In this document: positions 8,086-55,356 of the stretch, piece after piece
How positions within the stretch are numbered: the stretch's first letter is position 1
Layout: each line of letters begins with the position of its first letter
NCBI GenBank assembly: GCA_030647485.1
Contig: JAUSJT010000004.1
Span: forward strand, 109,088 to 173,087
Source: a bacterium
GTDB taxonomy: Bacteria; Patescibacteriota; Minisyncoccia; Minisyncoccales; UBA10102
Reading direction: 5' to 3'
DNA: 64,000 bases
Made by a program: the position numbers and the translations under genes
Notes under the pieces: generated by a model
Told to the model about the DNA's origin: nothing
Databases searched by the model: none
The model's input: the letters and a program-made list of their open reading frames with translations, nothing else

Positions 8086-8114
8086 TTTACAAATTCTTTT
8101 TCTCAGGGTATAAT
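8086..8114 (+). promoter_or_regulatory. sigma70-type promoter of the atp operon
   Basis: TTTACA-17 nt-TATAAT; 8 nt to the ATG of TATG 8122-8125 (left target copy of the inserted element). Confidence 0.6.
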
Positions 8115-8125
8115 CTCTTTCTATG

Positions 8126-8277
8126 CCCCGTACGAAATTTACACAGGCATAGTCACGCGAAGCGCGAGGGGCGAATAGCCCCATCCTTTCATGGGCGCAG
8201 CGCTTCGCCAATGACAGCATGCACCTATTCGGTGCGCGCACTGCGCAATGTAATAATATGGTAAATTTCTAACGGGG
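8126..8277 (+). mobile_element. 152-bp TIR element, copy A (non-coding relative of the GIY-YIG element)
   Basis: CCCCGTACGAAATTTAC...GTAAATTTCTAACGGGG termini, flanked by TATG on both sides; near-identical to 38754-38905 and 40729-40880. Confidence 0.75.
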
Positions 8278-8278
8278 T

Positions 8279-9022
8279 ATGCATATATCGCTACGGCCAG
8301 AAATTATTGGAACACTCTTTGGCATTCCCATTACCAACAGCTTGATTCTTTCTCTTATAACCGCTTTTCTTCTTGTTGGAGGCGGTTTTTTGCTTGCGCG
8401 TTCTTTGCGGATGATCCCAGGAAAAGCGCAAAATGCCATTGAAACGCTCCTGGAAGGAATCCTCGCCTTCATGGGCCAGACATTAGGGAATAAAGAGCAA
8501 GCGAAGAAATTCTTTCCTCTTGTAGCCACCATATTCTTGTTTATCCTGTTTAATAATTGGATCGGGGTGCTTCCTGGAACCGGGTCTCTGGGATTTTTTG
8601 AAGAAAACCAAGGAGTAAGAACATTTGTTCCTTTGTTTCGTTCTGCGAACAGCGATCTCAATACCACGTTTGCCCTAGCTTTAATCTCCATGGCCGCCAT
8701 TCAGTGGTATGGAATACGAAAGCTGGGGTTCTTGCGCCATATCTCCAAGTTTCTCGTGTTCACCAAGGGCCCGATTGATTTCTTCGTGGGGATATTGGAG
8801 TTGATAGGAGAGTTCGCAAAGATTCTGTCATTCTCGTTTAGGCTATTTGGCAACATATTCGCAGGAGAGGTGCTCCTCATTATTATCATGGCCTTAGTGC
8901 CGGTCATAGTGCCCCTTCCTTTTATCATGCTGGAATTCTTTGTAGGCTTTATTCAGGCCTTGGTTTTTGCTATGCTTACGTTGATATTCTTGAAAATAGC
9001 AACAGCTGAGGTCGAGCATTAG
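8279..9022 (+). CDS. atpB: F0F1 ATP synthase subunit a
   Basis: 247 aa polytopic; ...FSFRLFGNIFAGEVLL... signature. Confidence 0.9.
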   Translation: MHISLRPEIIGTLFGIPITNSLILSLITAFLLVGGGFLLARSLRMIPGKAQNAIETLLEGILAFMGQTLGNKEQAKKFFPLVATIFLFILFNNWIGVLPGTGSLGFFEENQGVRTFVPLFRSANSDLNTTFALALISMAAIQWYGIRKLGFLRHISKFLVFTKGPIDFFVGILELIGEFAKILSFSFRLFGNIFAGEVLLIIIMALVPVIVPLPFIMLEFFVGFIQALVFAMLTLIFLKIATAEVEH

Positions 9023-9033
9023 TATTAAAGGTC

Positions 9034-9290
<257 letters not shown>

Positions 9291-9307
9291 CGCGCCTACG
9301 CATACCG

Positions 9308-9817
9308 ATGACGGAGTTATTCGAAAACCTGGGTGTTGACTGGAAACTCTTGTTTGCGCAGGCAGTGAATTTTCTCTTAGTGTTGTGGCTGCTGAATCGC
9401 TTTGTATTCAGAAAGCTCCTTTCATTGCTGGAAGAGCGTAAAAAGAAGATTGAACAGGGATTGGAGCTGCGAGACCGAGCGGAAAAAGAGGTTGCGCAAA
9501 TTGGAAACGCACGCCATCGTGCATTACAAGAGGTAAAGAAAGAAGCAGAAATCGTGCTGTCTCAAACAAGGGATTTGGCTCGACAAAAAGAGCAAGAATT
9601 ATTAAAAGCCGCTAAAGAACAGCAAGAAACCATACTTTTGAATGCTCGTGCCCAGGGAGAAAAAGACAAGGAAGATATGCTACGGGAAGCGCAGCAGGAG
9701 ATACGCATGAGAGCTTTGTTCTTAGCGGAGCAGGCGTTAGGGAGAACGCTTACCCCTAAAGACGAAGAGAGAATAGCAAAAGAAGTAGTGCAGGCGTTGA
9801 AGAACTATGCAAAGTAA
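9308..9817 (+). CDS. atpF: F0F1 ATP synthase subunit b
   Basis: 169 aa; one N-terminal TM followed by a long charged coiled-coil; operon position. Confidence 0.85.
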   Translation: MTELFENLGVDWKLLFAQAVNFLLVLWLLNRFVFRKLLSLLEERKKKIEQGLELRDRAEKEVAQIGNARHRALQEVKKEAEIVLSQTRDLARQKEQELLKAAKEQQETILLNARAQGEKDKEDMLREAQQEIRMRALFLAEQALGRTLTPKDEERIAKEVVQALKNYAK

Positions 9818-10202
9818 AGTACGAATATACGCAAAGGTATTATATGAAGTCCTGAAGGGAGTTTCTTTAAGCGAGCAGAAAAAAAGGATTCATGCATTAT
9901 ATGGTATCTTAAAAAAGAGGGGAGATATAAAGATAAGCAACGGCATTTTGCAGGAATTTCAACGGTTAGAGAAAGAACAGAAGGGAAAAATAGGGAAAGC
10001 GGTTTCTGCACGGCGTCTGTCCTCATCTGTCAAAGCAACGCTTGTTTCAAAGTTAAAATCCATGAAGTTTGTATTGCAAGATCGAATTGATCCTAGTGTT
10101 ATAGGCGGAGTTGCACTGTTTTTAGGAAATGATTTTTTAATTGATAACACCATCCTTGCAAGATTGAGAAAACTATCCTATGGAAAAAGATTATCTTTTT
10201 GA
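9807..10202 (+). CDS. atpH: F0F1 ATP synthase subunit delta (OSCP), short form
   Basis: 131 aa; C-terminal [31 protein letters not shown] signature; operon position. Confidence 0.75.
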
Positions 10203-27245: not shown

Positions 27246-28025
27246 ATGAATAATGGAAGAAGGCATCCACAAGTGGTAAAAATAAGGGCACGTGAGTTGC
27301 GTAAAAATGGGTATACGCACAGAGAGATTGCAAAAACATTAGGAATCAGTAAGGGTTCTGCGCATTTATGGGCTACAGGCATTGTTTTAACATTTCATCA
27401 AAAAGAAGCGGTTGAACGAAGAAAGAATCAGCATGTTTACACTGAACAGGAGAAACAGGTGCTTCGGGAAAATCTCCGTAAAAACGTATGGCCACGCAAC
27501 ATCAAATATACAAGAGACTCATTGCTCCAGCTTATTCGAACTTTCTATAAAAAGAATGGAAGAATACCCCTGAAGAGAGAATTTAATATGTGGGGTGAGT
27601 ATAGAAGGCATTTTCAAGGATGGAACGATGCCATTAAAACAGCAGGATTTGAGCCGAATCAAGCCATTTTCTCAAAGAGGTGTTATGCGTGTGATGGTCA
27701 TATCTGCGATTCTTTTGTGGAAAAGATTTTGGATGATTGGCTTTCTTCGAAAAAGGTTCTCCATGAGAAAAATGCTCCATACGTTGGGACAAAAATGACA
27801 GCGGATTTTGCGATTGGCAACCTGCGTATTGAATATTTTGGTCTTGCAAAAGAAATGGACGGGTATGACGAGGCAATCAAAAAGAAAAGAACCCTATGTA
27901 GAAAGGAAGGGCTCAGACTTTTAGAAATATATCCCAAAGACCTTTTTTCCTCGTCGAGGGGATTCAAAAAATGTCTTGGTCAAATCCTACGAGCAGTAAG
28001 AGGCGGAACCTTATCTTTTACCTAA
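27246..28025 (+). CDS. HTH + homing-endonuclease-associated-repeat-like + nuclease-like C-terminal domain protein
   Basis: 259 aa; N-terminal RELRKNGYTHREIAKTLGISKGSAHLW (HTH); ...GRIPLKREFNMWGEYRRHFQGWNDAIKTAGFEPN; C-terminal DSFVEKILDDWL...ADFAIGNLRIEYFG resembles a restriction-endonuclease fold. Confidence 0.5.
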   Translation: MNNGRRHPQVVKIRARELRKNGYTHREIAKTLGISKGSAHLWATGIVLTFHQKEAVERRKNQHVYTEQEKQVLRENLRKNVWPRNIKYTRDSLLQLIRTFYKKNGRIPLKREFNMWGEYRRHFQGWNDAIKTAGFEPNQAIFSKRCYACDGHICDSFVEKILDDWLSSKKVLHEKNAPYVGTKMTADFAIGNLRIEYFGLAKEMDGYDEAIKKKRTLCRKEGLRLLEIYPKDLFSSSRGFKKCLGQILRAVRGGTLSFT

Positions 28026-32578: not shown

Positions 32579-33772
32579 ATGGCAGAAAAATTCGACAGAA
32601 CAAAACCGCATATCAACATCGGCACCATTGGCCACGTTGATCACGGGAAAACTACCCTTTCTGCAGCCATTTTGCATGTGCTGAAGTTAAAGGGCATGAA
32701 TGTCACAGAGAAGTCTGTTGACCAGATAGACGCAGCTCCAGAAGAGAAGCAGAGAGGCATTACTATTAATATCTCGCATTTGGAGTATGAGACCGAGAAG
32801 CGCCACTATGCGCACATTGACGCTCCAGGACATGCAGACTATATCAAGAACATGATCACAGGAGCCGCTCAAATGGACGGCGCTATTTTGGTTGTTTCAG
32901 CTCCTGACGGCCCTATGCCTCAAACCAGAGAGCACATTCTCTTGGCTCGTCAAGTAGGGTTGCCTAATATCATAGTATTCTTAAACAAGTGCGATGCGGT
33001 GGATGACCCTGAAATCATTGATCTTGTAGAGTCTGAAGTCAGAGAGCTCTTAAAGAAGTATAACTTCCCAGGAGATACCACGCCTATTATCAGAGGATCT
33101 GCATTGAAAGCGTTGGAGGTGAAGTCCGCAGATGAGGAAGCCGCAAAGCCCATTCTAGAACTCATGAAGACGGTTGATGAATACTTCCCGCAACCGGTGA
33201 GAGAATTGGATAAGCCATTCTTAATGGCGGTGGAAGACGTCTTCTCTATTGAAGGGAGAGGAACCGTTGCAACAGGAAGAGTGGAACGAGGAATCGTAAA
33301 GGCAAACGAAGAAGTGGAATTGGTTGGATTAAAACCAACGTCCAAGACCGTTGCCGTGAGCATGGAAATGTTTAACAAGACCTTAGATCAGGCGCAAGCA
33401 GGAGACAATGTTGGTATTCTTTTAAGAGGAACAAAGAAAGAAGAGATTGAAAGGGGACAGGTGCTGGCAAAACCCGGAACTGTGACTCCTCACACCGAGT
33501 TTGACGCTGAAGTCTACATTCTTGCAAAAGAAGAAGGCGGAAGGCATACCCCGTTCTTTACCGGATACAAGCCACAGTTCTACTTTAGAACTACTGACGT
33601 GACAGGAGACGTTACCTTGTCTACGGGAGTAGAAATGGTTATGCCAGGGGATACAGTGAACGTGAAAGTAAAGCTTTTGGTGCCTATAGCCATGGAAGAG
33701 AAACAGAGATTTGCTATCCGTGAAGGAGGAAAGACAGTAGGAGCTGGAGTGGTTGCAAAGATCAACAACTAA
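32579..33772 (+). CDS. tuf: elongation factor Tu
   Basis: 397 aa; [22 protein letters not shown]. Confidence 0.98.
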
Positions 33773-38348: not shown

Positions 38349-38747
38349 ATGACACGTTCACTTAAAAAAGGCCCATTTATTGACGAGAATCTTTTAAAGA
38401 AGATTCAAGGAACAAAACCCTTAGGGAAAGCCCCGGTAAATACCTGGTCTCGAAGGGCGACCATCACCCCTGAAATGGTGGGGTTTACCTTTGGAGTATA
38501 CAATGGAAAACAATTTATTCCAGTGCTGGTGGCAGAAGATATGGTGGGGCATAAGCTAGGAGAATTTTCTCCTACCACAAAGTTTGTACGGCATGGAGGA
38601 AGAATGCAGAAAGACATAGAACAGGGAGCAACAGCAGCTGCGGCTCCAGGAGCCGTTAGCGCACCCGCCTCCGCTGGACCTGCCCGTCCGGCAGGCGGGG
38701 CTACGGCGGGCAAGGCAGGGAAAACAGAGAAACCAACAGCGAAATAG
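38349..38747 (+). CDS. rpsS: 30S ribosomal protein S19 with about 40-aa Ala/Gly/Pro-rich C-terminal extension
   Basis: [12 protein letters not shown]...[25 protein letters not shown]...; tail ...[36 protein letters not shown]. Confidence 0.95.
38664..38714 (+). repeat. 51-nt GC-rich palindromic segment inside the rpsS tail (in frame)
   Basis: CCCGCCTCCGCTG + 23 nt (CCTGCC...GGCAGG) + GCTACGGCGGGCAAG; flanking 13-mer and 15-mer identical to atpD 12824-12853. Confidence 0.6.
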
Positions 38748-38753
38748 CCTATG

Positions 38754-38905
38754 CCCCGTATGAAATTTACAAAGGTCTATACACGCGAAGCGCGAGGGGC
38801 GAATAGCCCCATCCTTTCATGGGCGCAGCGCTTCGCCAATGACAGCATGCACCTATTCGGTGCGCGCGCTGCGCTTTATAATAATATGGTAAATTTCTAA
38901 CGGGG
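38754..38905 (+). mobile_element. 152-bp TIR element, copy B (rpsS-rplV junction)
   Basis: Flanked by TATG 38750-38753 and 38906-38909; termini CCCCGTATGAAATTTAC / GTAAATTTCTAACGGGG. Confidence 0.75.
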
Positions 38906-38906
38906 T

Positions 38907-39419
38907 ATGCAAACATTGATGAGGTTACAACGAATACGAATTGCGCCCAGAAAGATGAGAATGGTTATTGATCTGGTGCGAGGAAAGAAAGTTGCTCTTG
39001 CAAGGGATGTGTTGCGTTTTAAGACAAACAAGGGAGCTAGGATTCTTTCAAAGCTTCTAGACTCTGCGATTGCGACAGCCAAGTCATTGGGACAGGGAGA
39101 CGAGTCAAATCTTATGGTATTGAAAATAGCAGTGGACGAGGGTCCAAAGTTAAAACGCTGGAGAGCTCGGGCTAAAGGATCAGCCTATGAAATCCAAAAG
39201 AAAGTTTCTCACATTACGCTTATCTTAGACGAGGTGAAGGGTGCAAAATCCGCATCAGTATCCAGGAAAGAGATAAAAACAGGACAAGAAGCTGTGAAGA
39301 AAGATCAAGTTGCGATAAAGACAGAAAAGCCTAAGTTTAAGGCTGTATCTAGCGAGCTCAAGACTTCAAGGACTGAAAAAGGAGTTCAGAGATTCTTTAG
39401 GAAATCAGGAGAAAAGTAG
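38907..39419 (+). CDS. rplV: 50S ribosomal protein L22 with Lys-rich C-terminal extension
   Basis: 170 aa; ...RIAPRKMRMVIDLVRGKKVALARDVLRF..., ...RWRARAKGSAYEIQKKVSHITLIL. Confidence 0.93.
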   Translation: MQTLMRLQRIRIAPRKMRMVIDLVRGKKVALARDVLRFKTNKGARILSKLLDSAIATAKSLGQGDESNLMVLKIAVDEGPKLKRWRARAKGSAYEIQKKVSHITLILDEVKGAKSASVSRKEIKTGQEAVKKDQVAIKTEKPKFKAVSSELKTSRTEKGVQRFFRKSGEK

Positions 39420-40558: not shown

Positions 40559-40738
40559 ATGAACATCGCTGAACTGCGGCAAAAATCAAAAGGGGAGTTG
40601 CAGGAGTTCCTTCAAGGGCAGAAAGAAACACTGCGTCAACTTAGGTTTGATCTTGCTGCGGGAAAAGTAAAAAACGTGCGTCAGATAAGACAATTGAAAA
40701 AAACAATAGCACAAATACTAACCGTATGCCCCGTATGA
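40559..40738 (+). CDS. rpmC: 50S ribosomal protein L29 (stop codon supplied by the inserted element)
   Basis: 59 aa MNIAELRQKSKGELQEFLQGQKETLRQLRFDLAAGKVKNVRQIRQLKKTIAQILTVCPV*; below the ORF-track cutoff. Confidence 0.88.
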   Translation: MNIAELRQKSKGELQEFLQGQKETLRQLRFDLAAGKVKNVRQIRQLKKTIAQILTVCPV

Positions 40739-40880
40739 AATTTACAAAGGTCTATACACGCGAAGCGCGAGTGGCGAATAGCCACATCCATACAGGGGCG
40801 CAGCGCTTCGCCAATGACAGTATGCACCTATTCGGTGCGCGCACTGCGCTATGTAATAATATGGTAAATTTCTAACGGGG
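40729..40880 (+). mobile_element. 152-bp TIR element, copy C (rpmC-rpsQ junction)
   Basis: Flanked by TATG 40725-40728 and 40881-40884; carries the compensatory GTGGC...GCCAC variant of the GGGGC...GCCCC hairpin. Confidence 0.75.
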
Positions 40881-40881
40881 T

Positions 40882-41115
40882 ATGCCCAAAAAACAATTAA
40901 CTGGCATTGTGGTGTCAGACAAAATGCAAAAGACCATTGTGGTAGAGGTTGAACAATGGCATGTGAACTCAAAGTACAAGAGGAGATTTCGCATGCACAA
41001 AAAGTACAAAGCCCATGATGAGAAAGGAGAATACAAAATAGGAGACACGGTTGTTATTGAGGAATCAGTCCCTATTTCAAAAGATAAGAAGTGGAGAGTT
41101 ATTTCCAAGGCGTAA
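40882..41115 (+). CDS. rpsQ: 30S ribosomal protein S17
   Basis: 77 aa; ...LTGIVVSDKMQKTIVVEVE...HKKYKAHDE...GDTVVIEESVPISK. Confidence 0.95.
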   Translation: MPKKQLTGIVVSDKMQKTIVVEVEQWHVNSKYKRRFRMHKKYKAHDEKGEYKIGDTVVIEESVPISKDKKWRVISKA

Positions 41116-52734: not shown

Positions 52735-53811
52735 ATGCTGCTTGTTGATTTTGGAGAAAGCACCTGCAAGTTCGCTCTTGTGAAAGAATATGAAAAGAGC
52801 CTCGAGGTGCAAGAATGGGGGATAGAGGATATCCGCTCTTTAGAGTATGCAGCAGAGCATATCCTTGAGAGGATGAAAGGCGTGCATGGAGATATGGAGC
52901 CCGTCTTTGTAAGCTTGCCCGCCACCCTATGGAGATCGCGTGTATTGTATGAGGGAATAGAGAGGAAGAACGCGGCCTTGCGCATTGACTCTGCAGAAAA
53001 AGAAACCATCCTCGAAGGTCTTTTTGCGAGGACGCGCTCATCGCTCAAGGAACAGGTGCAAGATTCCTCTGGAATCCTCGCAGAGGACGTAAGTATCCAA
53101 AAGTTGCAGATCCTTAAGTACACGATTGATGGATACCATGTGCAAGACATTTTGGGCTTTCCGGGAACACACCTGGATGTTCAGATTATGGCAGTGTTTG
53201 CTCTTGTAAAGCATCTCCCTATCGTGGATAATATAATACAGAGGTTCTCTAGTATCTCTTCCCCCCGTATTGTTCATCTTGCAGAAGCCCTTGAGGGCTT
53301 TTCTCAAACGAGACCGCAGGACGCAATATACATTGATATGGGGGATGCATTCACCCGGATTATCGCGACGCAGCAAAAACGTGTTGCATTCGTTGACGAA
53401 GTTTCTCGCGGAGGCAGGGATTTCACGCTCTATCTTCAAGAGACCCTTTCTCTGGGAGAGAATACTGCAAAAGATTTTAAAGAACGGTATGCCTCAGGCG
53501 ACTTCTCGTTTCCCTTGAGGGAAGCGGTAAAGGAAGGATTCCTAGCCATAGCAGAAGATCTTGCACGTCTTGTATGTAAGAGTTTGCGCAGTACCAGGGT
53601 ATCTCTTCCTTCTTCTATTTTCCTTTTTGGAGAAGCCAGCAAGCTTCCAGAAATTGAAAAAGCCTTTCTAGGCAACATCTTTGAAGGATTGCCATTCCAC
53701 GAGAAGCCCCGCATCTCGTTCTTGCTGCCAAAGGATCTCTGGACCTTGGAGTTCCCCGGCAAAACAAATCCCGTCTTCACTCCATTATTTTTCTTGCCTT
53801 ATGCCCCGTAA
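52735..53811 (+). CDS. divergent FtsA/PilM-like actin-fold ATPase (stop codon supplied by the GIY-YIG element TIR)
   Basis: 358 aa; phosphate-1-like LLVDFGESTCKF, phosphate-2-like IYIDMGDAFTRI, SRGGRDFT, IFLFGEASKLPEI. Confidence 0.5.
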   Translation: MLLVDFGESTCKFALVKEYEKSLEVQEWGIEDIRSLEYAAEHILERMKGVHGDMEPVFVSLPATLWRSRVLYEGIERKNAALRIDSAEKETILEGLFARTRSSLKEQVQDSSGILAEDVSIQKLQILKYTIDGYHVQDILGFPGTHLDVQIMAVFALVKHLPIVDNIIQRFSSISSPRIVHLAEALEGFSQTRPQDAIYIDMGDAFTRIIATQQKRVAFVDEVSRGGRDFTLYLQETLSLGENTAKDFKERYASGDFSFPLREAVKEGFLAIAEDLARLVCKSLRSTRVSLPSSIFLFGEASKLPEIEKAFLGNIFEGLPFHEKPRISFLLPKDLWTLEFPGKTNPVFTPLFFLPYAP

Positions 53812-54088
53812 CATTACATCGGTAGTGTTCTTCTACGTCTATGTACTTTTGAGTTTGAAAGATGGAAACCATTATGTAGGATATACTACTGACTTGAGAA
53901 AGAGAATAGAAGAACACAAGAAGGGGCTGGTGTTCTCGACAAAAACACGAAGGCCCCTCACACTTATCTATTTTGAGGGTTGTCGAAATGAACAAGATGC
54001 TAAACAGCGCGAGCGATACCTCAAGATGACTATTGGTCGCAGATGGCTTGGCACAAGATTGAGGAATTTTAATAAAAAACTGATGTAA
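53801..54088 (+). CDS. stand-alone GIY-YIG nuclease-domain protein (95 aa)
   Basis: MPRNITSVVFFYVYVLLSLKDGNHYVGYTTDLRKRIEEHKKG...ERYLK; ATG is the left TATG copy and TAA lies inside the right TIR; the ORF-track start at 53681 is an extension into the upstream gene. Confidence 0.8.
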   Translation: MPRNITSVVFFYVYVLLSLKDGNHYVGYTTDLRKRIEEHKKGLVFSTKTRRPLTLIYFEGCRNEQDAKQRERYLKMTIGRRWLGTRLRNFNKKLM

Positions 54089-54098
54089 TGTTACGGGG
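53804..54098 (+). mobile_element. 295-bp GIY-YIG element with perfect 17-bp TIRs and TATG target duplication
   Basis: CCCCGTAACATTACATC (53804-53820) / GATGTAATGTTACGGGG (54082-54098); TATG at 53800-53803 and 54099-54102. Confidence 0.7.
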
Positions 54099-54099
54099 T

Positions 54100-55356
54100 A
54101 TGCAAAAAAAGAAAGTTCGTGATATTCTTCCTCCCAGGCGTGTCAAGGCGCACGAGCCTGAAAAAGCAACTCCATCTTCTCTCGTGCAGCGTTCCCCACA
54201 AAGAACCCCTAGGAGAATGCTGTTTTTTCTACTCTTTGTCGTGCTCATAGGAGGAATTACAGGGGTGCTTAGCCTCCACTTCTTTTTTGCCAAGGTCTGG
54301 ATTATCGTCCACCCGTACACAAGAGAGGTAACTGCCAAAGCGTCTATGACTGCCCGTGCAGGAATTGAGGGAACAGATATTGAAAAGAGTATCTCCGCAT
54401 TGATTATTAATGAAGAGAAGTCATTGACCAGACTATTTCCTGCGACAGGGATATCTACCGAGGAAGGAAGAGCTCGGGGCACCATACGGGTATTCAACGG
54501 ATTCTCCACGTTTCCTCAAAAATTAGTCGCGCAGACACGATTTCTTTCAGAAGACGGGAAGCTATTCCGTTCTCCAGGAGCCGTGGTGGTACCCGCAGGG
54601 CGTATGGAAGGAGGTAGCATTATTGCGGGATTCCTTGATATTGAGGTTGTAGCCGCAGAATCCAAAGAGGAATACAATATTGGACCTTCTAATTTTTCCC
54701 TTCCTGGACTCTTTGGGAATCCCGCATATACGACCATAACTGGAAAATCATCTGAACCTATGACTGGCGGGTCAAAAACGGAAGTTTCCGTTGTAACAGA
54801 ATCTGATTTGAATGCTGCACGGGATGCTCTTATGGCAGAGTTGCAGCAAGACGTGCGAGAATCCCTGGAGGGCAAGGTGCCAGAGGGTATGATATTGCTT
54901 TCTGACGCAGTAGACCTCCGGGTTGTTCAGGCGTCTTCACCTATCAAGGCAGCAGCTCCGTTAGACAATTTTAATTTCTCTGTGAAAGTCCAGGGAGTAG
55001 CCATAGTTTTTTCCAAGGCCGATGTTGAGAACGCAGCCAAAACGCTTCTTGCCAACCTTACAGAAGGGGGAGAAAAAATAGCCGAACGGGCCGATTCAAT
55101 AGAGTACGAAAACGTGGAAATGAATATGAGCGCCCAGAGCCTTTCTTTTGACATGAGAGCGTCCACGAGGACCTACAAAGAGATTGACCCTGTTGAATTC
55201 AAGGCGCGCTTAGCGGGGATATCAAAGGATGAGGCGGCTTTAGCGCTTTCCTTAAATCCCAGCCTGCAAAAAGCAGAGATTCTTTTATTTCCCTTCTGGC
55301 TTACATATCTCCCCCAAGACCCCAATAAGGTGGAGGTTAGCATAGTTATTGACTAG
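54100..55356 (+). CDS. hypothetical membrane-anchored protein
   Basis: ATG of the right TATG copy (MQKKKVRD...); one N-terminal TM ([20 protein letters not shown]); no family recognised. Confidence 0.6.

Follow-up and report, generated by a model that had tools for sequence, protein, structure and literature searches.

How do three nearly identical blocks of DNA come to end on the start codons of three housekeeping genes, and what carried them there? The question is raised by a 64-kb stretch of bacterial DNA (the window, that is, the whole stretch that was analysed; contig JAUSJT010000004.1). It is a housekeeping region with the atp operon, the S10-spc-alpha ribosomal clusters, tuf, alaS and mreB, and its proteins have their closest matches in Patescibacteria/Parcubacteria metagenome-assembled genomes (MAGs); the genome is small. 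A 152-bp repeat separates rpsS from rplV, and two further copies precede atpB and rpsQ. The original prediction, made from the window's sequence, took them for derivatives resembling miniature inverted-repeat transposable elements (MITEs), mobilised by a neighbouring element that encodes a GIY-YIG nuclease, or by a relative of that element. We find it near certain that the 152-bp repeats are mobile, non-autonomous MITEs. We also think it likely that they belong, together with a family of minimal GIY-YIG transposons, to a system that resides on start codons in Patescibacteria, also called the candidate phyla radiation (CPR). Our coverage is the 64 kb of the window and, for other genomes, short flanks around the loci fetched.

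The repeats and their empty sites

The three copies lie exactly where they had been predicted, with all coordinates and sequences correct (Table 1), and their pairwise identity is 91.4-94.1%. Their termini, CCCCGTAYGAAATTTAC and GTAAATTTCTAACGGGG, match as inverted repeats at 15 of 17 positions, again as predicted, and those of the copies in two other genomes (L004 and L005) match at 17/17. The terminus pattern occurs 6 times in the window (three copies, two ends each) against an expected 0.38, and none of 100 shuffles reached 6. An exact ACGGGGTATG also lies inside tuf, at 33545-33554 on the minus strand, with no partner end nearby, probably by chance. Four further copies of the 152-bp family are present in other contigs, each at a different locus.

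Relatives that carry the same gene junctions without the repeats tell us that the repeats move. In L022, whose L22 protein is 76% identical, the rpmC-rpsQ junction reads 'aaccgTATGcccaaaaaacaattaactggc', which is the window sequence minus 152 bp and one TATG. The gap first noticed between rpsS and rplV is real: from the rpsS stop (38747) to the rplV ATG (38907) the window has a spacer of 159 nt, and both L022 and L021 have 3 nt. This junction is empty in both relatives, so the block is not ancient at the locus. The GIY-YIG element has an empty site of its own. In L006 (minus strand), an FtsA/PilM-like gene is followed by a homologue of the gene that starts at 54100, and the junction, 'ttttttgccTTATGcaaacaaagaaagttcgtgac' (also given as 'ttttttgccTTATGcaaacaaag'), has a single TATG, being 295 bp and one TATG shorter than in the window. 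Because relatives have these empty junctions with a single TATG, the TATG found on both sides of each element is a genuine target-site duplication of 4 bp, and the elements inserted recently. Moreover, flank pairs vary between copies of one family yet match each other (TATG/TATG, TGAA/TGAA, TCAA/TCAA, ATGA/ATGA). The MITE-like, non-autonomous and mobile character proposed from the start is borne out by these empty sites.

It had also been predicted that each of the four elements is bracketed by TATG and that the right-hand ATG is the start codon of a host gene. This agrees with Pfam for atpB (ATP-synt_A), rplV (L22) and rpsQ (S17), and with the N-termini of homologues, in L022 and L021 for rplV and rpsQ and in L006 for gene 54100.

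Genes upstream of the insertions have changed as well. The rpmC frame now stops at TGA 40736-40738, inside MITE copy 3, and ends ...TVCPV* instead of ...TVCPKNN*; the FtsA/PilM-like gene now stops at TAA 53809-53811, inside the GIY-YIG element. In relatives, the tails of both genes overlapped the next gene, and in the window these tails, of 3-6 codons, have been replaced. Downstream, the public annotation of L22 (P0041, 166 amino acids) starts at the second ATG, 38919, 4 codons downstream of 38907. The first ATG is the one conserved in relatives (MQTLM / MQTVM / MKTMM), and the MITE probably misled the gene caller.

The same junction offers two side observations. In another relative (L018, 2915-3000), rpsS and rplV are separated by an unrelated 85-nt spacer with a 20-bp perfect palindrome, atgtaaagtaggactttaaa / ttaaagtcctactttacat; foldback DNA seems to have landed at this junction repeatedly. 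And the S19 protein of the window (38349-38747) has a C-terminal extension of ~40 amino acids rich in Ala, Gly and Pro, for a total of 132 amino acids; relatives have the extension too, at differing lengths (118-130 amino acids).

What is a 152-bp repeat made of? The whole element is a foldback: its left 76 nt agree at 52/76 positions with the reverse complement of the 76 nt on the right. Each half consists of the terminus, a variable AT-rich spacer, GCGMAGCGCGM, a 5-bp hairpin with a GAATA loop, and GCGMAGC. Folding the alignment of 7 copies from 5 contigs results in a consensus three-way junction, closed by the paired termini, and recovers the hairpins that had been proposed by eye. Compensatory pairs appear at alignment columns 1/153, 44/56 and 45/55; the terminal pair goes from C:G to T:A. 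The first hairpin is found as GGGGC/GCCCC, as GTGGC/GCCAC (the compensatory changes of copy 3), as GCGGC/GCCGC and as GTTGC/GCAAC, and the remaining core is invariant. The fold of a single sequence has a minimum free energy z-score of -5.6, and the core has a GC content of 66%, the window one of 45%. The covariance model (R1) gives 183 bits on the elements' own strand and 107-123 bits on the reverse strands; since it scores both, what it describes is a two-fold symmetry and not a strand-specific RNA. No extra copies were found with R1 over the 198 kb of fetched loci. Rfam has no match to any part of the window at gathering threshold, and relaxing the cut-off to E <= 1 for 38700-38960 brings up none either.

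The only reading frame of the MITE is a 49-codon frame that reads through it, and an element so short is without a complete transposase gene. Searching databases with these 49 amino acids returned one match, P0161, which is another copy of the MITE, and no protein family. A consensus scan found no outward promoter in the MITE. A Shine-Dalgarno (SD) sequence in its right end was considered and rejected: just 1 nt separates the GGGG from the ATG, and SD sequences are little used in this genome.

The GIY-YIG element and its relatives

The fourth element of the window has ends CCCCGTAACATTACATC and GATGTAATGTTACGGGG, and has CCCCGTA in common with the 152-bp repeats, as the original prediction had it. 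Its open reading frame (ORF) also contains a GTG at 53825, which would give 87 amino acids. The database protein P0001, annotated from the left-flank ATG, is the same protein apart from the start codon. The protein matches Pfam GIY-YIG (PF01541, E=7e-16), with T5orf172 as the only other Pfam match, and the catalytic domain covers the whole of its 87-95 amino acids, with no separate DNA-binding domain. There is a weak match to TIGR01453 (24 bits vs a cut-off of 56). By sequence, its closest solved relatives in PDB are 1zg2 (BH0048, E=5.9e-7) and 1ywl (EF2693, E=1.3e-6), UPF0213 proteins that form a bacterial, minimal branch of the Slx1 family (PMC1564403). Across 26 homologues, the catalytic residues Y14, Y25, R35, H39 and E71 are invariant, as is G27, and every GIY-YIG ORF seen is intact. 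At 50% identity, the stand-alone GIY-YIG family falls into 6,587 clusters under a threshold of E <= 1e-3 and 893 under one of E <= 1e-10. The window may hold a second gene related to selfish nucleases, at 27246-28025 (+), for a 259-amino-acid protein with the Pfam domain HNH_repeat (homing endonuclease associated repeat; E=5e-11).

We have found eight independent GIY-YIG genes of this kind (56-99% amino acid identity): the one in the window, two in L012, and those of L007, L009, L036, L039 and L040. All eight are bounded exactly by 14-20-nt inverted ends that start with YCCNGT, with a 4-bp duplication. The seven outside the window (56-78% identity) each lie directly before a co-directional gene. 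Elements of this putatively autonomous type are 277-326 bp long, with a consensus end YCCNGTW... and a single ORF of about 87-100 amino acids.

Two of these genomes link the GIY-YIG elements to MITEs through their ends. In L036, another Patescibacteria contig, a 301-bp GIY-YIG element (protein P0028) carries the ends CCCCGTTAGAAATTT, which agree with the MITE terminus of the window over its first 15 nt (15/15). In L012, a 118-bp MITE and a 277-bp GIY-YIG element lie 540 bp apart and have a common terminus, TCCCGTTAGAGACAA (15-17 nt). Within the window, the resident GIY-YIG element and the three MITEs make the identical TATG duplication. So, of the proposal that the GIY-YIG element or a relative mobilised the repeats, the matching ends and duplications stand as observations, and the role of the enzyme is what we infer. 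The idea that the MITE core is a deletion derivative of the GIY-YIG gene was rejected, as there is no similarity beyond the ends. MITE interiors (the 152-bp family and the 118-bp element of L012) are also unrelated to each other apart from the ends. End classes differ between protein clades, that is, the end sequences diverge along with the GIY-YIG protein.

Wider searches added little. Among genome contig representatives, the 18-nt terminus has three matches (Lysobacterales, Rhodanobacteraceae and Clostridia), at or below the chance expectation of ~35, and a metagenome scan using both ends gave only three further copies. Scanning viral contigs with MITE-sized and GIY-sized end patterns gave 0 matches; the scan of viral proteins gave two distant members, including L042 (IMG/VR), which has recognisable inverted ends. 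When plasmid and phage collections were queried with the DNA of the MITE and with the GIY-YIG protein, there were no matches, or none beyond remote GIY-YIG genes of phages. In neither the 39 window proteins that were scanned nor the genes called at the fetched GIY-YIG loci did a transposase domain turn up.

Some database entries of the wider family deserve a comment. In Verrucomicrobia, a GIY-YIG element with ends CCCCGTGAGATA (L026/L029, 1184-1461) interrupts an integron-integrase gene between LLGHS and KNVATTMIYTHV, the point being between the LLGHS and TTMIYTHV motifs; entries P0312 and P0324 read as IntI-GIY-YIG fusions of about 400 amino acids. In the cluster of P0199, the otherwise >90% identical P0345, P0350 and P0353 have a 36-amino-acid insertion between ...GFL and SLTG. 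It falls inside the right terminal repeat and may be a nested insertion. Members of this cluster differ in their N-terminal extensions, which implies different upstream flanks.

Start codons and reading frames

Where do the elements insert? Our table of target sites has 17 scorable independent insertions. TATG is duplicated at the four window elements, at L009, L039 and L040, at a MITE in L036 and, with one copy decayed, at L007 and the first GIY-YIG element of L012 (L012 #1). TGAA is duplicated at L004, L006, L025 and the second L012 element (L012 #2), ATGA at the GIY-YIG element of L036, TGG at the L012 MITE and TCAA at L005. The strict preference for TATG(C) that had been proposed holds, then, in the window genome but not in the family at large. 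Every duplication except TCAA overlaps an ATG, as T/ATG, ATG/A or A/TGAA. Where TGAA or TGG is duplicated, the element ends in A or G, and this base together with TG recreates an ATG or GTG start, for example for fmt, def, prfA and the L025 gene. In 15/17 insertions the duplication overlaps the start codon of a downstream co-directional gene. The target genes include atpB, rplV, rpsQ, prfA, def, fmt, a penicillin-binding protein (PBP) gene, PMT_2, GT2 and a TraC-like gene. For def in L012, the annotated start lies 30 nt inside the 118-bp MITE (2252 vs 2282), and a likelier original start is the ATG that the final A of the element forms with the TG of the duplication.

The 152-bp family uses TATG in the window and TGAA or TCAA in L004, L005, L006 and L025. 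One MITE family showing different duplications in different genomes suggests that the resident enzyme, and not the ends, sets the target, and this variation fits the window's TATG-type GIY-YIG element, or a relative, as mobiliser. With TGAA as the duplication, the MITE occurs in either orientation with respect to its host gene (L025 vs L004 and L006).

How surprising is it to land on a start codon? Of the 86 genes of the window (with starts at 279, 3791, 9062, 32578 and 41124, among others), 43 start with TATG, and a T precedes 62% of ATG starts. This unusual initiation context may be what the elements exploit, or conceivably it is their footprint. The TATG sites of the window divide into 43 at starts, 33 other non-coding and 447 coding. 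As a rough null for the other genomes, we use the window's site proportions (for TATG, 43 vs 33; for TGAA, 14 vs 49 non-coding), under which the TATG-type insertions at starts (10/10) have P ~0.004 and the TGAA-type ones (5/6) P ~0.0025. There is also a C at +4 in 8/10 TATG-type sites, compared to ~25% of the window's ATG starts. The association with start codons across genomes is real. It may arise from targeting, which our model favours, or from stronger selection for harmless sites.

Frames, too, are arranged around the host start. The GIY-YIG ORF is in frame with the left-flank ATG in 6/8 elements, and at least 22 of 40 database homologues start with MP[RSG], which is ATG plus CCCNGT. Five elements have their stop inside the right end, with 2-11 nt left to the host ATG; in L012 #2 stop and host ATG overlap as ATGA, and in L036 the frame continues into the host gene for 14 nt. 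Many proteins of the wider family have the C-terminus ...LTG: here the right end CTAACGGG is translated in frame, and the duplication contributes the TGA stop. As for the MITE, 4/5 start-codon copies (copies 2 and 3, L004 and L025) have a host-phased frame that stays open up to a stop lying 0-6 nt from the start of the host gene. These open frames represent three combinations of phase and orientation, and the lengths of 151, 152 and 153 bp fit the phase. As a design feature, the open MITE frame is suggestive only.

How might the host gene still be translated? Upstream of the window's genes, an SD-like motif is seen in 14/86. MITE copy 1 lies between a promoter-like site of the atp operon and atpB (Table 1); going by this consensus match, the atp mRNA would have been leaderless, or nearly so, before the insertion. 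Because there is little use of SD sequences and the atpB promoter-like site is so near the TATG, many targets are probably leaderless or SD-independent starts. From the layout of the frames, the host gene after insertion most plausibly depends on termination-reinitiation, and we take such translational coupling to be moderately likely. The paired ends, by placing the old upstream context beside the new ATG, would be an alternative or additional route.

Table 1. Positions in the window of the MITE copies, the GIY-YIG element and the sites next to them.
Feature	Position	Strand	Description
Promoter-like site	8086-8114	+	TTTACA-17-TATAAT, 11/12 consensus match; ends 8 nt before left TATG
Copy 1, left TATG duplication	8122-8125	+	its ATG opens a 9-codon frame, TAG at 8150-8152
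MITE copy 1	8126-8277	+	152 bp; inverted ends 8126-8142, 8261-8277; covariance model 183 bits
Copy 1, right TATG duplication	8278-8281	+	ATG 8279 = atpB start; Pfam ATP-synt_A for 8279-9022
Copy 2, left TATG duplication	38750-38753	+	ATG 38751 opens a 49-codon frame; TAA 38898-38900, 6 nt before rplV ATG
MITE copy 2 (the copy first flagged)	38754-38905	+	152 bp; inverted ends 38754-38770, 38889-38905
Copy 2, GC-rich core	38785-38874	+	helix GCGAAGCGC 38785-38793 pairs with GCGCTTCGC 38828-38836
Copy 2, hairpins		+	GGGGC 38796-38800 with GCCCC 38806-38810; GCACC 38849-38853 with GGTGC 38859-38863
Copy 2, right TATG duplication	38906-38909	+	ATG 38907 = rplV start (MQTLMRLQ), conserved in L022, L021
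Copy 3, left TATG duplication	40725-40728	+	ATG 40726 opens a 49-codon frame ending TAA 40873-40875
MITE copy 3	40729-40880	+	152 bp; inverted ends 40729-40745, 40864-40880
Copy 3, right TATG duplication	40881-40884	+	ATG 40882 = rpsQ start
GIY-YIG element, left TATG	53800-53803	+	provides start codon of element ORF
GIY-YIG ORF	53801-54088	+	95 amino acids from left-flank ATG; TAA 54086-54088, 11 nt before host ATG 54100
GIY-YIG element	53804-54098	+	295 bp; perfect 17-nt inverted ends 53804-53820, 54082-54098
GIY-YIG element, right TATG	54099-54102	+	ATG 54100 starts host gene

A model, its rivals and known systems

The model that we favour is the following. An autonomous member would have one ORF, for a minimal Slx1/UPF0213-like GIY-YIG nuclease, with the inverted ends forming part of the coding sequence. 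Its insertion would duplicate 4 bp that overlap the host start codon, TATG in the window genome and ATGA or TGAA in relatives. The first of the two ATG copies, together with the host's promoter and initiation context, would drive the element ORF, and the downstream copy of the duplication would restore the host start (in the TGAA type, the element's last base plus TG would make the ATG or GTG). The element ORF would end in the right end or overlap the restored ATG (as ATGA), and ribosomes would re-initiate on the host gene; by this coupling of termination and reinitiation, the insertion would be nearly neutral. The 152-bp MITE would keep only the ends, around its GC-rich, two-fold symmetric foldback core, and in the window genome it would have been moved in trans, probably by a TATG-type GIY-YIG enzyme such as that of 53804-54098.

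As for the chemistry, the nuclease may recognise the ends and cut with a 4-nt stagger at the element boundaries and at the target, with host repair completing the integration. Its kinship to Slx1 makes it conceivable that it works as a multimer or on an extruded structure. In this view the GIY-YIG nuclease itself would catalyse both excision and integration, possibly with host repair or ligation, and we hold the assignment of the enzyme to this protein to be moderately likely. A sticky-end transposition, which would cut at TATG and ligate, was also considered; it is disfavoured by the TGAA duplication with the MITE in both orientations (L025 vs L004), a pattern that an inversion between the ends could mimic.

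Several points weigh against this model. To our knowledge, GIY-YIG enzymes are hydrolytic nucleases with no known strand-transfer activity, which means that the chemistry would not be that of canonical transposition, and integration would need host functions. Our coverage leaves room for a conventional transposase elsewhere in these genomes. The resident GIY-YIG element has only the 7 nt CCCCGTA in common with the MITE ends, and the 15-nt end match is to a GIY-YIG element of another genome (L036). We saw no GIY-YIG element that occupied two loci in the same genome. Not all flanks are perfect (ATAG/TATG in L007, TATG/TATA in L012 #1, and the 3-bp TGG of the L012 MITE), and distant members with YCCNGT-type ends (L026 and L042) are without a clean duplication, the one in L026 sitting inside a gene, the integron-integrase. 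With respect to start codons, the 4/4 insertions at starts in the window have P ~0.1 if only intragenic insertions were purged, a specificity for TATG and the loss of such insertions being enough to account for them, so that the window alone proves no bias, and the original prediction of insertion at translation starts owes its support to the 15/17 across genomes. The L005 copy is not at a start codon, being 76 nt upstream of tuf, and the L006 insertion, cut by the end of the contig, is not scorable for it. Finally, the statistic for the open MITE frame is weak (P ~0.04), and copy 1 has an early TAG in the host-phased frame.

What else could explain these elements? The main rival is a conventional transposase that we have not seen, for example a DDE enzyme making 4-bp duplications, which would move both types of element with the GIY-YIG gene as cargo or hitch-hiker. 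We consider this unlikely. Inverted ends with a fixed short duplication are the established signature of DDE transposition, TGAA duplicated in both orientations (L025 vs L004 and L006) is what a classical staggered-cut integration would give, and the lack of known strand transfer by GIY-YIG nucleases and the partial coverage of each genome both favour it. Yet in eight diverged GIY-YIG genes the inverted ends still coincide exactly with the boundaries of the ORF and are translated, and those ends diverge together with the protein, with different end classes for different clades. The invariant catalytic residues also speak against this rival, as does the scan of window proteins and of called genes at the fetched loci, which returned no transposase domain. 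Homing is another possibility, and an improbable one: the GIY-YIG element would be a free-standing homing endonuclease gene copied by homologous repair, with the 152-bp repeats unrelated to it. GIY-YIG is a classic homing-endonuclease fold (by Pfam, and by the weak TIGR01453 match), and each exact GIY-YIG protein was found at one locus across samples. But homing makes no duplication and needs no inverted ends, and both are present here, as the empty sites confirm; MITEs with the same ends sit at many unrelated loci; and the protein, with its catalytic domain only, is without the DNA-binding domains of I-TevI and Seg/Mob.

Could the fold of the repeats point to a different origin? Their two inverted units of ~76 nt, each with a GC-rich hairpin, resemble REP/BIME repeats or the PATEs of IS200/IS605, which would be moved as single strands by a Y1 (HUH) transposase, and a Y1_Tnp gene lies 120 nt from the L025 MITE copy. 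We judge this very improbable, because Y1 elements have neither duplication nor inverted ends, and here the flank pairs vary but match. In addition, the GIY-YIG elements have the same ends without hairpins, no Y1 gene was found in the scanned window proteins, and the L025 Y1 gene comes with a palindrome that has no sequence relation to the MITE. (That IS200/RAYT-like gene, at 9223-9960 on the minus strand of L025, has its own palindrome, ccactttacacccc-cgg-ggtgtaaagtgg.) The strong predicted structure and the covarying hairpin pairs would also suit ancient cis-regulatory leaders, attenuators or structured RNAs native to their operons and not mobile. This reading is hardly credible: it is contradicted by the same junctions being empty in close relatives, and near-identical copies before unrelated genes and the lack of any Rfam match even at E <= 1 also go against it.

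Under the model of minimal GIY-YIG transposons, the repeats first flagged are MITEs, of a known kind, and their autonomous partners would be a new class of transposon if the enzyme has the role we give it. In the full form of the claim, these would be the smallest autonomous bacterial transposons (about 280-330 bp), a new superfamily with a minimal Slx1-like GIY-YIG nuclease as its only protein. They would have no promoter or ribosome-binding site of their own, often no start of their own and sometimes no stop, relying on the host ATG and on a stop-start handback, with MITE derivatives at essential operon starts of streamlined CPR genomes. On this full claim our opinion is evenly balanced. Should the GIY-YIG nuclease prove to be the mobiliser, prokaryotic DNA transposons would gain a further catalytic class and autonomous elements a new lower size limit, and part of the large uncharacterised stand-alone minimal GIY-YIG family would acquire a function. 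Residence on start codons, with a duplicated ATG and a coupled stop, is a distinct route of persistence in genomes that are ~90% coding, permitting insertions before rplV, rpsQ and atpB without the death of the host. There are practical consequences too. The elements distort the gene calls of CPR MAGs (spurious N-terminal extensions, starts inside MITEs, fused ORFs), and a nuclease that prefers TATG(C)/ATGAA may be attractive for biotechnology.

How do these elements compare with known systems? Our literature searches brought up no account of GIY-YIG transposons, MITEs in CPR or start-codon-targeting elements; nor, in the literature searched, was a function or mobility found assigned to the UPF0213/Slx1-like minimal family, whose members BH0048 and EF2693 resemble the protein described here in sequence, in their single domain and in their size (about 90-100 amino acids). 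The repeats are like bacterial MITEs (Correia/NEMIS of Neisseria, RUP, Nezha, MITEAba12) in being about 100-300 bp long, non-coding and multi-copy, with inverted ends and a short duplication. Those MITEs are often co-transcribed with their neighbours, fold into long hairpins and have, each of them, an autonomous partner with only the ends in common. Known MITEs derive from DDE insertion sequences, whereas the only partner with matching ends here encodes a ~90-amino-acid GIY-YIG nuclease. Unlike known MITEs, the elements sit on start codons and duplicate the ATG, and the host-phased frame tends to run through to a stop beside the host start. With the free-standing GIY-YIG homing genes (T4 seg and mob; I-TevI) they have in common the GIY-YIG domain, a small selfish gene between essential genes and a dependence on the expression signals of the host. 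The homing enzymes differ in their added DNA-binding domains (>200 amino acids) and single allelic site, and come without inverted ends, duplication or MITEs.

IS200/IS605 with its PATEs, and REP/BIME with RAYT, are also tiny, with non-autonomous palindromic derivatives and a tetranucleotide target preference. IS200/IS605, with structured hairpin ends, are the smallest autonomous bacterial transposons known (about 700 bp), and the elements here are less than half that size. Both IS200/IS605 and REP use a Y1 HUH transposase acting on a single strand, without inverted ends or duplication, and the fold of the enzyme here is different. Finally, Rickettsia palindromic elements (RPEs) are, like the MITEs, foldback repeats, of about 100-150 bp, and they persist in expressed regions by leaving the frame open. 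RPEs are found inside coding sequences, to which they add peptide segments, and have no known partner enzyme, whereas the elements described here stand at the start codon, with their stop before the host ATG.

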